From sequence record NC_048177.1: a DNA stretch of 42,291 nt; one strand, 5' to 3'. Shown piece by piece: positions 1 to 42,291 of this stretch (position 1 is its first letter; each line of letters opens with the position of its first letter). Source of the stretch: Escherichia phage Lidtsur. The notes under the pieces are model-generated. The model saw only the letters and a list, made by a program, of their open reading frames with translations, was not told the origin of the DNA and searched no databases. The position numbers were made by a program, and so were the translations under genes.

Positions 1-393
1 ATGTACCGTATCTATGCAAGCGCATATCGTCAGGCAAACGCTGAGTGTGTTAATCTGGCGCTTCATTGCAAGGCACTGCGAACGGTGCAGGATATGTTCG
101 GAGTGATTCCGGTCACACTGACAGGCAAGTTTAACGATGCGTATGAGTTAAGCATGGTCTTCCCTGTCGATGGAATCTACGAAATCAGACAGGCTGTTAA
201 GCTGTTCTGTAAAGCCTTTGAACAGGACTGCATCATGGTAGTGACCGATGATGATGATGCAATCTTCATGGATTCACCATATCCGGGCAAGCCTGCTGGC
301 AAGTTTGTCAGCAAGACTGAGGCCGAAATGGAAGCCGGGCAATTCACTGCTTGGACTTACGATGGTGAGCAATTTTGGGTAGTGGAGGCATAA
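1..393 (+). CDS. hypothetical early protein (130 aa)
   Basis: ORF starts at ATG at position 1; a GGAG Shine-Dalgarno (CAACTGGAGAAATAACT) lies at the last bases of the window, so the gene is intact only if the contig is circularly permuted; acidic DDDD stretch; no recognisable domain. Confidence 0.5.
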   Translation: MYRIYASAYRQANAECVNLALHCKALRTVQDMFGVIPVTLTGKFNDAYELSMVFPVDGIYEIRQAVKLFCKAFEQDCIMVVTDDDDAIFMDSPYPGKPAGKFVSKTEAEMEAGQFTAWTYDGEQFWVVEA

Positions 394-394
394 A

Positions 395-469
395 ATGTTC
401 GCAGCACTGTGTGTACTGGCTGCGCTCTGCTGGGTAGTAGACCAGCGCCTGAGCAAACGCCGTGGCTGA
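395..469 (+). CDS. possible 24-aa hydrophobic peptide (MFAALCVLAALCWVVDQRLSKRRG)
   Basis: ATG 7 nt after GGAGG; short hydrophobic stretch then basic tail; below track cutoff, read directly from sequence. Confidence 0.2.
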   Translation: MFAALCVLAALCWVVDQRLSKRRG

Positions 470-529
470 TAGCCTATAGCGTCCTACGGGGCGCTATGTG
501 AAATCAACCAAACCGACAAGGGGTTTATC

Positions 530-1054
530 ATGCAATTCAAATACACTAGCTTCAAAAACGTTGTCCAGCTCGACAAGGCTATCGCTGAGTCAATCAGCAG
601 CGCTAAAACACTGCGTGAAGGTATTCAGGACGTGGCTGTAGGCATTCTGATGCACGCTTACAAGCACGGTGACTACACTCGTGCTGAGCATTACGTCAAC
701 GGGCTTGGAACAGGCGTTCGCCAGAAAGCTCTGGTTGACTGGTTCGTCCAGTTTGGTGGCCTGACCATCGGCACCCGCAGCAACGGCAACGTTGGTTTCG
801 TGGGCTGGAAAGGCGCTGAGCACATCAAAGCCAACTTTGACAAGGCCAAAGAGACTGGCTGGTGGACTTGCAAGCCTGAATCTGCGTTCGAAGGGTTCGA
901 CCTGCAAGCTGCGCTCGACAAGCTGATTGCCAAAGCTGAAAAGGCAATGAACAAGGCAAACGAGCTGCGCCATGAAGGGCGTGATGAGGATGCGAACAAG
1001 GTTGTCGTGCCTCAGAACGTGCTGGACGGCCTGCGCAAGCTGAAAGCTGCGTGA
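530..1054 (+). CDS. hypothetical early protein (174 aa)
   Basis: Track ORF; ATG preceded by AAGGGG; no recognisable motif. Confidence 0.6.
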   Translation: MQFKYTSFKNVVQLDKAIAESISSAKTLREGIQDVAVGILMHAYKHGDYTRAEHYVNGLGTGVRQKALVDWFVQFGGLTIGTRSNGNVGFVGWKGAEHIKANFDKAKETGWWTCKPESAFEGFDLQAALDKLIAKAEKAMNKANELRHEGRDEDANKVVVPQNVLDGLRKLKAA

Positions 1055-1061
1055 TTACTGA

Positions 1062-1084
1062 CAGCCCATTCACTGAGTGGGCTG
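1062..1084 (+). promoter_or_regulatory. intergenic stem-loop, type A (CAGCCCA-9nt-TGGGCTG)
   Basis: Perfect 7-bp inverted repeat with TTCACTGAG loop immediately after the stop of the upstream gene; near-identical copy at 1453-1475. Confidence 0.45.
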
Positions 1085-1095
1085 GATTGTAACCA

Positions 1096-1108
1096 CGGCA
1101 ATAATGCC
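1096..1108 (+). promoter_or_regulatory. conserved 5'-leader motif CGGCAATAATGCC
   Basis: One of four copies of GGCAAT(C/A)(A/C)TGCC located ~25 nt upstream of the start codons of the paralogous acidic genes. Confidence 0.4.
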
Positions 1109-1129
1109 ACAAACCAACTGGAGATTACC

Positions 1130-1435
1130 ATGTCCAAAATTACTGTAGTCCTGCTGCGTGACCTGCCTGCCTCCGCTTTCTCTGGCGGCCACGTTGAAGA
1201 AATGCAACAGCGTGAATACGTGGCGCTGACCGATGGCAGCCGCTATCTGATTGCAGGCATCAACAAAGACCACGATAGCAAAGAGACTATCGAGGCGCAC
1301 TTCCGGGCGAATGGCATCGACCCTGACCTGCCGCTGCCGCTCGTCGCCATGATGAACAGCGTGCCGCTGCTGGATGCCGCCGATGTGGAAGGTGCGACCA
1401 TTGACGAAGTGTTCAGCGTTGAATCCGCAGCCTAA
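1130..1435 (+). CDS. small acidic early protein, paralogue family member 1 (101 aa)
   Basis: ATG with GGAG SD; N-terminus MSKITVVLL resembles MTKLVLI / MTKVTVLL / MAKVTAYF of neighbours; acidic composition. Confidence 0.65.
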   Translation: MSKITVVLLRDLPASAFSGGHVEEMQQREYVALTDGSRYLIAGINKDHDSKETIEAHFRANGIDPDLPLPLVAMMNSVPLLDAADVEGATIDEVFSVESAA

Positions 1436-1452
1436 CGAGCTGGATTAACTGA

Positions 1453-1475
1453 CAGGCCATTCAATGAGTGGCCTG
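1453..1475 (+). promoter_or_regulatory. intergenic stem-loop, type A (CAGGCCA-9nt-TGGCCTG)
   Basis: 7-bp inverted repeat, loop TTCAATGAG; flanks (CTGGATT..ACTGACAG / ATTGT.AACC) also match the 1062 copy. Confidence 0.45.
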
Positions 1476-1512
1476 AATTGTTAACCCAACCAATAGTCTA
1501 AGGAGACTTAAA

Positions 1513-1785
1513 ATGGCAAATGCGTACATTGCTCGCGGCGTAGATTCTCAGAAGGTTCTGGCCTACGTCCTGCGTGACAGCGACACTGAATCCCTGATTG
1601 CTCACACTCGTAAAGAGGGCGAGCCGGAAGAGGCCGAGGCTGTGCTGGCTGAACTGAAAAAGGTAGGCGTACCGCCTGCTATCGCTTTCCTGATTCACGG
1701 CATCCCGGAAGACACACTACAAGAGGTTGCTGAGCCGTTGTGGGGTGAGCGTGTGGAGCTGGAACACGTAGGCGTTGTTGAATAA
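1513..1785 (+). CDS. small acidic early protein, paralogue family member 2 (90 aa)
   Basis: AAGGAG SD; shares KK(V/L)G..(A/I)(F/G)FLIHG motif with the 2585 gene. Confidence 0.65.
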   Translation: MANAYIARGVDSQKVLAYVLRDSDTESLIAHTRKEGEPEEAEAVLAELKKVGVPPAIAFLIHGIPEDTLQEVAEPLWGERVELEHVGVVE

Positions 1786-1790
1786 CAGCG

Positions 1791-1836
1791 GGCTTGACTC
1801 AAGCCATCTTGCGAGGTGGCTTTATGGCAATCCTGC
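1791..1836 (+). promoter_or_regulatory. type B leader element: two short hairpins (loop TTGCGA) plus TGGCAATCCTGCC motif
   Basis: GGCTTG-ACT-CAAGCC and GCCAUC-TTGCGA-GGUGGC stems followed by the conserved GGCAAT..TGCC motif; repeated at 2164 and 2524. Confidence 0.45.
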
Positions 1837-1860
1837 CTCTTAAATTCTGGAGTAATTATC

Positions 1861-2157
1861 ATGACTAAACTCGTACTGATTCGCGGCATCGCTGCTGAAA
1901 AATTTGAAGACGGCGTATCCGCTCCGGTGCTGGCTATCGAGGGTGAAGATACCTTCGCAATCCTGCAAGGTCTGTCGGACGGCTACAACATCGACGAAAT
2001 CAAAGCTGGTGCTCTCGAACAGCTTGGCGAGTCGGGCGATGAGCTGCCGCCTGAGTTCCTGTGGCCTATGCTGTTCAGCAACGGAGTGAACAAAGACAGT
2101 GACGACCTGAAAGGCACGGAAGTTGAAGTGCTGCATGTGTTCGGCGCTGCTGCGTGA
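1861..2157 (+). CDS. small acidic early protein, paralogue family member 3 (98 aa)
   Basis: Internal ATG of track ORF 1816-2157 chosen because GGAG SD lies 8 nt upstream and N-terminus MTKLVLI matches paralogues. Confidence 0.65.
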   Translation: MTKLVLIRGIAAEKFEDGVSAPVLAIEGEDTFAILQGLSDGYNIDEIKAGALEQLGESGDELPPEFLWPMLFSNGVNKDSDDLKGTEVEVLHVFGAAA

Positions 2158-2163
2158 TGCCCG

Positions 2164-2201
2164 GTTGCCTCCTTGCGAGGGGGCAACATGGCAATCATGC
2201 C
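2164..2201 (+). promoter_or_regulatory. type B leader element: 9-bp stem hairpin (loop TTGCGA) plus TGGCAATCATGCC
   Basis: GTTGCCTCC-TTGCGA-GGGGGCAAC stem-loop followed by conserved motif. Confidence 0.45.
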
Positions 2202-2222
2202 CCAACCTATCGAGGATTTATC

Positions 2223-2516
2223 ATGACCAAAGTAACCGTACTGCTGACCAGTGACAAAGTAACCCTCATCGCTCTGCTGGGTGATGCTGTAGAAGATACG
2301 CCGTCACTGGCTCTGGATATCAAGCCGGGTTCCGACCTGTCTGCTGCTATCGCTGAACTGGAAACGCAGTTGAAGAAACCGACTGCGCCTATCATGTTCA
2401 TCGTGAATGGTGGCGGGTACAGCCCGGAAGCGGCAGCGCAGTACAGCCCGGAGAAAGTGGCTGAGTTCACTGTCGATAACCCGGCGCTGGATGAGTTCGT
2501 CGCTGCTGTAGCGTGA
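2223..2516 (+). CDS. small acidic early protein, paralogue family member 4 (97 aa)
   Basis: Internal ATG of track ORF 2154-2516; GAGGA SD; N-terminus MTKVTVLL. Confidence 0.65.
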   Translation: MTKVTVLLTSDKVTLIALLGDAVEDTPSLALDIKPGSDLSAAIAELETQLKKPTAPIMFIVNGGGYSPEAAAQYSPEKVAEFTVDNPALDEFVAAVA

Positions 2517-2523
2517 TTTCTGT

Positions 2524-2562
2524 CTGCCCTTGCATAGTCGAGGGCAGTAGGGCAATCATGCC
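2524..2562 (+). promoter_or_regulatory. type B leader element: hairpin CTGCCCT-10nt-AGGGCAG plus GGGCAATCATGCC
   Basis: 7-bp inverted repeat followed by conserved motif. Confidence 0.45.
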
Positions 2563-2584
2563 ACAACTAACTGAGGGTTCAATC

Positions 2585-2875
2585 ATGGCTAAAGTAACTG
2601 CGTACTTCTCTGCATCCCAAAAAGATATCATCGCTGTGGTCGGCGACGGTCTGGCTCAGGGCAACATGGCACTGTGCACCAGCGGCACCGAGAGCGGCGA
2701 CACTTTCGACACCAAAGAAAGCGCCATCGCTGGGCTGCCGACTCTGTTCGACGATATCAAAAAGCTGGGGGCTATTGGCTTCCTGATTCACGGTGGCGCG
2801 TTGAATGATGACGCTGCTGAGCGTATGGTCGCCGATGGTTATGAAGAAATCGGCTCTATCGAAATCGAAGAGTAA
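2585..2875 (+). CDS. small acidic early protein, paralogue family member 5 (96 aa)
   Basis: Internal ATG of track ORF 2513-2875; GAGGG SD; strongly acidic C-terminus. Confidence 0.65.
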   Translation: MAKVTAYFSASQKDIIAVVGDGLAQGNMALCTSGTESGDTFDTKESAIAGLPTLFDDIKKLGAIGFLIHGGALNDDAAERMVADGYEEIGSIEIEE

Positions 2876-2897
2876 TGCCAGCGCTTGAAGTGTTGGC

Positions 2898-2937
2898 GAT
2901 GATTAGCTGCCATGTAGGTGTTGGCACGCTAATCATC
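2898..2937 (+). promoter_or_regulatory. long imperfect stem-loop (about 15 bp stem), candidate RNase III site or early terminator
   Basis: GATGATTAGC+TGCCA pairs with TGGCA+c+GCTAATCATC around a 9-nt loop; lies in the only sizeable gap of the early region; no downstream U-tract. Confidence 0.4.
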
Positions 2938-2985
2938 TACATCGTTCGCGCTGCCCATAAATCATACAAACGTTAGGAGTTTTGC

Positions 2986-3162
2986 ATGAAGATTGCGGTA
3001 ACACGGAGCGGTGCGAGCCACGTTGCGCACAAGATGCACTTCCTGTTTCACTCGCTGTATCTCACAGCGGCTGCGCTCGAAGGGCATCTGTTCTATAGCA
3101 TCATGGCAGGGGGCACCTTACTGTTCATGTTAGGCACGGCGGTGCTTGGCGATGAACACTAA
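2986..3162 (+). CDS. small hydrophobic membrane protein (58 aa)
   Basis: ATG 8 nt after TAGGAG; translation MKIAVTRSGASHVAHKMHFLFHSLYLTAAALEGHLFYSIMAGGTLLFMLGTAVLGDEH; below track cutoff. Confidence 0.4.
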   Translation: MKIAVTRSGASHVAHKMHFLFHSLYLTAAALEGHLFYSIMAGGTLLFMLGTAVLGDEH

Positions 3163-4322: not shown

Positions 4323-4472
4323 ATGGGTGGCAGCACATACAATGCCCACGCCAATCAGATAACCTACGCAGGTTACTGCGCACTTGGTGGGGCAAGCAAT
4401 CCAAATCTGGTGAGCCGTGCCGTGTATCTCGGCAGCCACTTCATGCACTGGGAATATTATTTAGTGAGGTAA
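4323..4472 (+). CDS. possible small ORF (49 aa)
   Basis: ATG after GAGGTGA; fills the gap between 4315 and 4478; below track cutoff. Confidence 0.3.
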   Translation: MGGSTYNAHANQITYAGYCALGGASNPNLVSRAVYLGSHFMHWEYYLVR

Positions 4473-41675: not shown

Positions 41676-41704
41676 TTGACAAGCGAGTCTCACTATGCTG
41701 TAAT
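41676..41704 (+). promoter_or_regulatory. sigma70-type early promoter candidate P2
   Basis: -35 TTGACA (41676-41681), 17-bp spacer, -10 TGTAAT (41699-41704). Confidence 0.65.
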
Positions 41705-41756: not shown

Positions 41757-41786
41757 TTGACAAGCCGATTCAAGATGTGATGTAAT
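41757..41786 (+). promoter_or_regulatory. sigma70-type early promoter candidate P3
   Basis: -35 TTGACA (41757-41762), 18-bp spacer, -10 TGTAAT (41781-41786); P2 and P3 share the TTGACAAGC core. Confidence 0.6.
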
Positions 41787-42291
41787 CGGCACCGAGTTGA
41801 AAGGATGAAAAGCATCCTGCTCTGAGTGAACGCAAACTGGCCGCGTAGTGTCACGGCTCACTGGGTATCCGCCGCAGGTTGGAACTGGGTGAGGCATCGC
41901 CGAAAGGCAACGGTATCGCAACATTGCTAACGCCGTAGGGGTAGCGCCCGATGCAGGGAACAGAGAAGCGCGATAGACGCAGCGCAGTATCAGTACAATC
42001 CCAAACGTCTTATAAGCATTGTAGACAGTAGGGGACGTAGCAAAACACACTCGACTTTGAGCTGGCGCGTAGCAGGTTGCGCAGGGTATGACTGAGTGTT
42101 GAGCGGAGTCGCTGAAAGATACTTGAATCCGATGATAAATGCCGGATTATGCGAAATGGGCGGGGCGATTTTTCAGGGTAGTGAATCCGACAAGCCATTC
42201 CATGCCGAACAAACCTAGTACGCTACTGGTACGGCGCGTCACAATGGGTTCACTATCCACCTGAAAATAGCCAACAACTGGAGAAATAACT

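Follow-up and report, generated by a model that had tools for sequence, protein, structure and literature searches.

Between the first two early genes of Escherichia phage Lidtsur there very probably lies, as judged from its conservation, a real protein-coding gene of 24 codons (positions 395 to 469) that has been overlooked through its length. Comparison of the sequences of related phages shows protein-level purifying selection on this frame, together with a maintained ribosome-binding site. The best overall explanation, which we consider likely, is that 395-469 is a genuine translated early gene with a membrane-inserted product that modulates a host inner-membrane protein.

The early regions of T7-like phages hold host-takeover and anti-defense functions, and standard gene callers do not see genes shorter than about 30 codons. 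Our analysis adds a well-supported 24-residue gene beside an anti-restriction enzyme and finds hydrophobic micro-ORFs of unrelated sequence in the corresponding place in other genera. Incidentally, it also offers a structural explanation for a sequence that was once predicted as a KP34-type promoter and then found inactive. The practical gain is modest, namely, better annotation of Bonnellvirus and related therapeutic phages and a candidate for small-protein functional screens. The side findings, that is, the recurrent micro-ORFs in the same slot and the RNase III-like hairpin, may be as useful as the gene itself.

Genomic setting of the micro-ORF

The window, by which we mean the whole stretch of DNA that was analyzed (42,291 nt), is the entire genome of Lidtsur, a phiKMV-like member of the Autographiviridae in the genus Bonnellvirus. 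Its relatives in this genus include Kc261, RZ4, BHUENT7, J8-65, and the Danish "sur" phages, among others. The ATG of gene 1 is position 1 of the window, while its Shine-Dalgarno (SD) sequence (GGAG) is found at the other end, in 42281-42291, as are two host-type promoters of the form TTGACA-17/18 nt-TGTAAT (41676-41704 and 41757-41786), both of which had been missed by a strict consensus scan. The window is therefore a circular permutation of the whole genome. The + strand carries all 54 large ORFs of the window and also holds every recognized gene of the Bonnellvirus relatives. Gene 1, whose homologues are labeled anti-restriction SAMase in the records of J8-65 and the sur phages, ends with a TAA at 391-393, and gene 2 is "hypothetical" in the annotation of all relatives. 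The features of the region are listed in Table 1.

Table 1. Features around the micro-ORF, with the location of the Eracentumvirus ORF described in the text; positions are those of the window unless another locus is named
Feature	Position	Strand	Basis or remark
Gene 1, S-adenosylmethionine (SAM) lyase ("anti-restriction SAMase")	1..393	+	Pfam PF23780 (E 1.3e-26), phrog_2226
SD GGAGG of the micro-ORF	384..388	+	Direct reading; inside the last codons of gene 1
Micro-ORF, 24 codons + TGA, MFAALCVLAALCWVVDQRLSKRRG	395..469	+	ORF list; in-frame conservation
Bipartite RNA hairpin	463..510	+	Fold and covariation
SD AAGGGG of gene 2	518..523	+	Direct reading; 6 nt 5' of ATG 530
Gene 2, conserved early protein	530..1054	+	phrog_1448, E 5.9e-49; first cistron 3' of the hairpin
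Eracentumvirus ORF	L022 1308-1391 (Era103); L024 1000-1083; L025 and L026 999-1082		

A preliminary description of this DNA had proposed a gene for a hydrophobic peptide of 24 amino acids between genes 1 and 2, with its ATG 7 nt downstream of a GGAGG, and the sequence bears this out. The ORF runs on the + strand from an ATG at 395, 1 nt past the stop of gene 1, to a TGA at 467-469. The spacer between GGAGG and ATG comprises 6 nt (389-394), which makes the A of the ATG the seventh base past the last G. The peptide had been described as a single hydrophobic helix with a basic tail, and its composition agrees: residues 1 to 15 have a mean Kyte-Doolittle hydropathy of 2.67, the N terminus has no charge, and for the tail, DQRLSKRRG, the net charge is +3. 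The hydrophobic stretch, at 15 residues, is short for a full membrane span. The charge layout of the peptide is compatible with an N-out, C-in topology.

As a sighting in a single sequence, the ORF carries no statistical significance for a genome of 42 kb. The 156-nt stretch in which it lies was simulated 20,000 times with a first-order Markov model; an ATG-initiated ORF of at least 24 codons arose by chance in 18% of the simulations, and one that also had an SD-like 4-mer 5 to 15 nt upstream arose in 2.7%. It is the comparative evidence that sets the ORF above chance. The codon-usage log-likelihood is positive in frame 0 alone (+2.2 versus -9.6 and -2.9), which is weak support, and the score is low, with 8.6% of true in-frame 24-codon windows scoring equal or lower. 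Apart from the downstream hairpin, the body of the ORF has no significant RNA structure (region z score of -0.57).

Conservation of the frame and of its ribosome-binding site

The check that had been proposed for the ORF, its conservation in related phages together with its SD sequence, gave a positive result. Fifteen of the 16 distinct Bonnellvirus genomes (17 of the 18 GenBank records) have an open frame, with the SD sequence kept and a pN/pS of 0.27. There are no indels over the 22 shared codons at a mean pairwise nucleotide identity of 0.82. Variable columns number 9, 5, and 15 at the first, second, and third codon positions, and the minimum numbers of state changes are 11, 5, and 22, respectively (binomial P = 0.0016). 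The other two sense frames, +1 and +2, have pN/pS values of 1.17 and 2.06, and most relatives have stop codons in them. For the SAM lyase gene of the same genomes, pN/pS is 0.17. The mean amino acid identity is 0.844, versus 0.658 ± 0.034 after shuffling of alignment columns in a manner that preserves the phylogeny and the per-site variability of the alignment, and none of the 20,000 shuffles reached the observed value.

The replacements themselves follow the same pattern. Most genomes encode Ser20 by AGC and the forsur group by TCT, so that all three bases differ and the amino acid is unchanged, and the other replacements are conservative (V/I/L, A/T/L, and K/R). Thirteen residues are invariant, namely, M1, A4, L5, C6, A9, A10, C12, W13, D16, Q17, R18, L19, and R22. 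In the forsur clade the peptide has 23 amino acids and ends one residue sooner, with SKRA.

The SD sequence occurs in two contexts. In one, GGAGG lies within the final codons of the SAM lyase gene, 6 nt from the ATG. In the other, which is that of the J8-65 clade, the conserved ATG has AAGGAG, AAGGGG, or AGGGGG 7 nt upstream of it; here the junction is rearranged, with the SAM lyase stopping one codon earlier and a new SD sequence after the shifted stop. A frameshift or readthrough extension of the SAM lyase was considered for 395-469 and rejected, as the micro-ORF is offset by +1 in the window and by +2 in J8-65. An antisense gene (274..456, - strand) was likewise rejected, as its starts and stops differ among the relatives and an SD sequence is absent.

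The one genome without the frame is that of Escherichia phage HHU8, in which a 63-nt deletion (L007, about 1190-1215) has taken out 19 codons of the micro-ORF together with its start. As a result of the deletion, the SAM lyase gene ends at a new TAG, whereas the hairpin is intact, including the exact lower stem. HHU8 is viable without the ORF, and the micro-ORF is therefore dispensable for plaque formation in at least that phage.

Nothing is annotated between the SAM lyase gene and gene 2 in the 18 related GenBank records. The preliminary description had held that such micro-proteins are missed by length cutoffs, and this fits the lack of annotation in all 18 records despite the conserved frame, which we attribute to such cutoffs. 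The peptide had no significant match in Pfam, PHROG, NCBIfam, or PDB, and none of nine variants of it occurs in a collection of about 15 billion predicted proteins. A BLASTN search of E. coli genomes and plasmids gave no homologue of the micro-ORF. With the peptide as the query, TBLASTN gave no match among 50,697 phage records and missed the known relatives too, probably through the low-complexity filter. An IMG/VR scan with a back-translated pattern returned two Bonnellvirus contigs only, one of which is J8-65 itself. The family is thus confined to one genus, with 18 GenBank records and 1 further IMG/VR contig, and its phylogenetic depth is modest.

We also scanned metagenomes with a very degenerate pattern. 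Among the matches listed (120 loci), none lies in a short frame that resembles the peptide or has the GCCT...GTGAA element after it, and the loci were taken as chance matches. A literature search found no functional, transcriptomic, or proteomic study of any Bonnellvirus phage. As far as sequence comparison can tell, the peptide is a new family among small hydrophobic phage early proteins.

The downstream hairpin and other micro-ORFs in the same slot

The micro-ORF runs into a bipartite hairpin. A lower stem (463-470 paired with 503-510) is followed by an internal loop and an upper stem (475-484 paired with 489-498), which is capped by a UACG tetraloop (485-488). Within the lower stem, 464-469 are the final sense codon of the micro-ORF and its UGA. 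The fold of 458-514 has a free energy of -24 kcal/mol and a z score of -3.7. In an alignment of 12 distinct copies from Bonnellvirus, Drulisvirus, and Eracentumvirus, 95.2% of the pair cells are paired, versus 26 to 55% with slid partners. At 12 of the 19 pairs, including 6 of the 8 in the lower stem, both sides have changed, and none of 500 shuffles matched the observed covariation. The element at 463-510 is therefore an RNA structure.

The hairpin core, AGCCTATAGCGTCCTACGGGGCGCTATGTGAA, is also found in Klebsiella phages, with 97.6% identity over 41 nt in the closest of 161 matching records. The same core sequence was predicted to be a phage promoter of KP34-like phages (Eriksson et al. 2015, PMC4411677) and does not direct transcription by the KP34 RNA polymerase in vitro (Lu et al. 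2019, PMC6834552). The window holds one copy only, allowing up to 3 mismatches. We rejected the reading as a promoter for a phage RNA polymerase on account of this single copy and of the in vitro inactivity (PMC6834552). By analogy with known processing sites, a covarying, RNase III-like hairpin is our explanation for the failed KP34 "promoter."

Several features of the hairpin fit an RNase III site of the T7/T3 type, namely, the lower stem of 8 positions, the internal loop, the 10-bp upper stem, and the location between early cistrons. The element at 463-510 is a probable mRNA processing or stabilizing site by this analogy, and RNase III cleavage is suggested by the resemblance alone. A search of the hairpin against Rfam matched no family, and a literature search for RNase III sites and transcriptomes of KP34-like and Bonnellvirus phages returned nothing relevant and no transcript-end data. 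The T3 record has an annotated RNase III site, R0.5, directly 3' of the SAMase gene, 0.3. In both T3 and the window, the early genes begin with that of a SAM lyase, and a hairpin with lower stem, internal loop, and upper stem comes after it, set against the last stop codon. However, T3 has no micro-ORF between the SAMase gene and the hairpin, and the SAM lyase of the window has no detectable similarity to that of T3 (TBLASTN at E ≤ 1e-5 found Bonnellvirus and Eracentumvirus only).

A second family of intergenic hairpins, CTGACAGSCCATTCAMTGAGTGGSCTGRATTGT, follows genes 2 and 3 (1058-1090 and 1449-1481). This family shows a compensatory change from CC/GG to GC/GC and has the same layout of lower stem, loop, and upper stem as 463-510. 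By analogy, the early operon appears to be punctuated by processing or stabilizing hairpins in the fashion of T7 and T3.

The space between the SAM lyase gene and the hairpin holds other micro-ORFs in some relatives. In forsur, usur, glasur, ROV85, and LF82-23, a second hydrophobic micro-ORF of 27 amino acids, MWDLLVALFWFVFAGLWIYWLTRPKLW, lies between the first micro-ORF and the hairpin. This extra ORF (L008 1268-1351 in forsur) is unannotated and joins the first through a TGAtATG junction. Its three variants differ synonymously only. In Eracentumvirus phages Era103, Nifs112, Tapenade, and S2, an unannotated ORF for a hydrophobic peptide of 27 amino acids, MIKNTGFAWAIAFSGSFW[LMV]AVVYY[GS]FN, is found directly 5' of the hairpin. 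It adjoins a distantly related SAM lyase gene in Era103, and an ORF of 32 amino acids intervenes in the other three. The pN/pS of the Eracentumvirus ORF is 0.06, with 2, 0, and 12 variable columns at the three codon positions.

The peptides of the window, the forsur group, and Eracentumvirus have no detectable similarity to one another. Like the ORF of the window, the forsur-group and Eracentumvirus ORFs are hydrophobic, downstream of a SAM lyase gene, unannotated, and subject to mostly synonymous change; unlike it, they encode no basic tail of the DQRLSKRRG kind. Klebsiella phage Putnam carries three copies of the hairpin element, and between two of them there is a 7-codon ORF, MVGYGEG, with a GGGAGG SD sequence (L014 1479-1502). 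The stop codon occupies the same register in the lower stem, NNN-stop-N-(A/U)GCCU, in four unrelated ORFs, namely, those of 24 amino acids in Bonnellvirus, 27 in the forsur group, 27 in Eracentumvirus, and 7 in Putnam.

Possible roles of the peptide

Accessory early genes of T7-like phages typically serve host takeover or defense evasion. In the mechanism that we propose, the host RNA polymerase would transcribe the region from the promoters 5' of gene 1, and the micro-ORF would be the second and last cistron of a first early mRNA that ends at the hairpin or is processed in it. The evolutionary pattern argues for translation of the micro-ORF. Translational coupling to the SAM lyase gene is probable, because the ATG lies 1 nt past the SAM lyase stop and the SD sequence lies inside the last codons of that gene. 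The 24-residue product would be released while still within the ribosomal tunnel; being too short to emerge before release, it would therefore reach the membrane posttranslationally. Proteins below about 45 to 50 amino acids are not targeted cotranslationally by SRP and are inserted after translation (reviewed in PMC12648545). The N-terminal helix of 15 residues would then sit in the bilayer of the inner membrane, probably with the basic tail (+3) in the cytoplasm. Action on the membrane, as the preliminary description had envisaged, is plausible from the composition of the peptide and from what is known of how hydrophobic proteins of this small size behave. An invariant patch at the interface, C12-W13-x-x-D16-Q17-R18-L19, points to binding of a specific partner more than to nonspecific damage of the membrane. 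A modulating action on a host inner-membrane protein is therefore favored over a toxin-like or cis-acting role, and our best guess is that the peptide would modulate or inhibit such a protein in host takeover or defense evasion.

Small single-helix proteins of the enterobacterial inner membrane, such as YohP (27 amino acids) and YkgR (reviewed in PMC12648545), are among the closest classes for comparison. Like the peptide of the window, they have fewer than 50 amino acids, one hydrophobic helix, and a very short charged tail and are routinely left unannotated. They are inserted posttranslationally, as is predicted for the peptide, and many members bind a larger membrane protein. The peptide of the window differs from them in that it has no sequence similarity to the class in NCBIfam, Pfam, and PDB searches, belongs to the early lytic operon of a phage, is absent from E. 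coli chromosomes and plasmids, and has a membrane location that is predicted.

Among the alternatives, it is highly improbable that the open frame is no gene and arose as a by-product of a constraint on RNA or DNA structure or as the shadow of an antisense gene. The rate at which frames of this length arise by chance would allow it, the ORF was never called by any annotator or gene caller, and two antisense frames are open in all 10 distinct sequences, one of them at a pN/pS of 0.44. However, the wobble positions of that antisense frame coincide with those of the sense frame, as a shadow would have it; the frame has no SD sequence, and its starts and stops are not conserved. The recognized genes are all on the + strand; length cutoffs account for the missing annotation. 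The shuffles of alignment columns, the enrichment of variation at third codon positions, and the lack of significant structure in the ORF body also speak for a gene. The micro-ORF might be a cis-acting translated leader, in which termination at the UGA in the lower stem gates hairpin folding and processing, SAM lyase mRNA stability, or gene 2 expression, and the peptide is incidental or matters as a nascent chain only. The shared stop register of the four unrelated ORFs and the exact retention of the lower stem in HHU8, which lost the ORF, would fit this, as would a superficial likeness to TnaC (24 amino acids, invariant W13 and D16, and a UGA stop). We nevertheless hold it to be decidedly unlikely. 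Mere translation would not need the selection on amino acid identity that is seen along the entire peptide in the V/I/L, K/R, and AGC/TCT substitutions; W13 is at a variable distance from both the stop and the hairpin, with the forsur group ending the peptide earlier and a second ORF intervening; the peptide ends in Gly or Ala rather than in Pro; and it is nothing unusual in T3 for a processing hairpin to abut the stop codon before it.

A toxin-like peptide, which depolarizes or permeabilizes the inner membrane early, as type I toxins (IbsC and TisB) or pinholins do, and thereby serves host shutoff or competitor exclusion, is unlikely in our view. The architecture, one short hydrophobic helix and a short charged tail in fewer than 30 amino acids, is that of type I toxins (PMC12648545), and the high hydropathy of the first 15 residues agrees with it. 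The presence of two unrelated hydrophobic micro-ORFs in the same slot of relatives suggests that hydrophobicity itself is selected. IbsC (19 amino acids), TisB (29 amino acids), and the Hok family are, like the peptide, very short and mostly a hydrophobic helix with few charges at the end. In contrast to these toxins, the peptide is neither chromosomal nor plasmid-borne, without homologues in E. coli chromosomes or plasmids, and no locus for an antisense RNA antitoxin is evident: a consensus scan of both strands of 1-3000, a weak negative, found no sigma-70-like promoter, and the antisense frames have no conserved start or SD sequence. The strongest conservation is moreover in the polar juxtamembrane motif (D16, Q17, R18, L19, and R22) and not in the helix, which specific recognition fits better. 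An early collapse of the membrane potential would presumably hurt the phage's own energy-dependent replication, and the phage has a separate lysis cassette at 39.2-40.8 kb. Broader, and rather unlikely as a whole, is the reading that the gap between SAM lyase and hairpin is a dedicated slot, independently filled by unrelated hydrophobic micro-proteins in different Autographiviridae. The peptides would then either aid the SAM lyase in defense evasion, for example by disabling a membrane-associated defense or abortive-infection sensor, or their translation termination in the lower stem would time the processing and thereby set the dosage of the first early mRNA.

Two short peptides invite comparison with the predicted modulator of an inner-membrane protein. 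T4 Stp is an early peptide of 26 residues that inhibits the EcoprrI restriction enzyme; to our knowledge, it is not a membrane peptide. The peptide of the window is likewise a phage early peptide of about 25 residues, and its gene adjoins an anti-restriction gene, an adjacency by which alone an anti-restriction link might be suggested. The TnaC leader peptide has 24 amino acids, with W12, D16, and P24, and a UGA stop. The peptide of the window has the same length, its invariant Trp and Asp are likewise separated by a few residues, and its UGA closely precedes an RNA region with a regulatory role. A TnaC-like arrest peptide was rejected as a family, however, as the spacing is W13-x2-D16 and not W12-x3-D16, the last residue is Gly or Ala and not Pro, and the length and the stop distance vary by clade.

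Two further kinds of membrane-associated product were also considered and set aside. A lipoprotein precursor, for which we took the lipobox [LVI][ASTVI][GAS]-C preceded by a basic n-region, was rejected, as both cysteines stand in A-A-L-C, with Leu at -1, and no Lys or Arg precedes the hydrophobic core; the lipobox fits only some relatives (IAAAC). A holin or pinholin was rejected from the location in the early operon, away from the spanin (phrog_1804) and endolysin (phrog_315) genes at 39.4-40.8 kb. Elsewhere in the window, a 162-nt gap between larger ORFs holds an ATG-initiated ORF of 49 amino acids with a GAGG SD sequence (4323-4472), which may be a further small gene.
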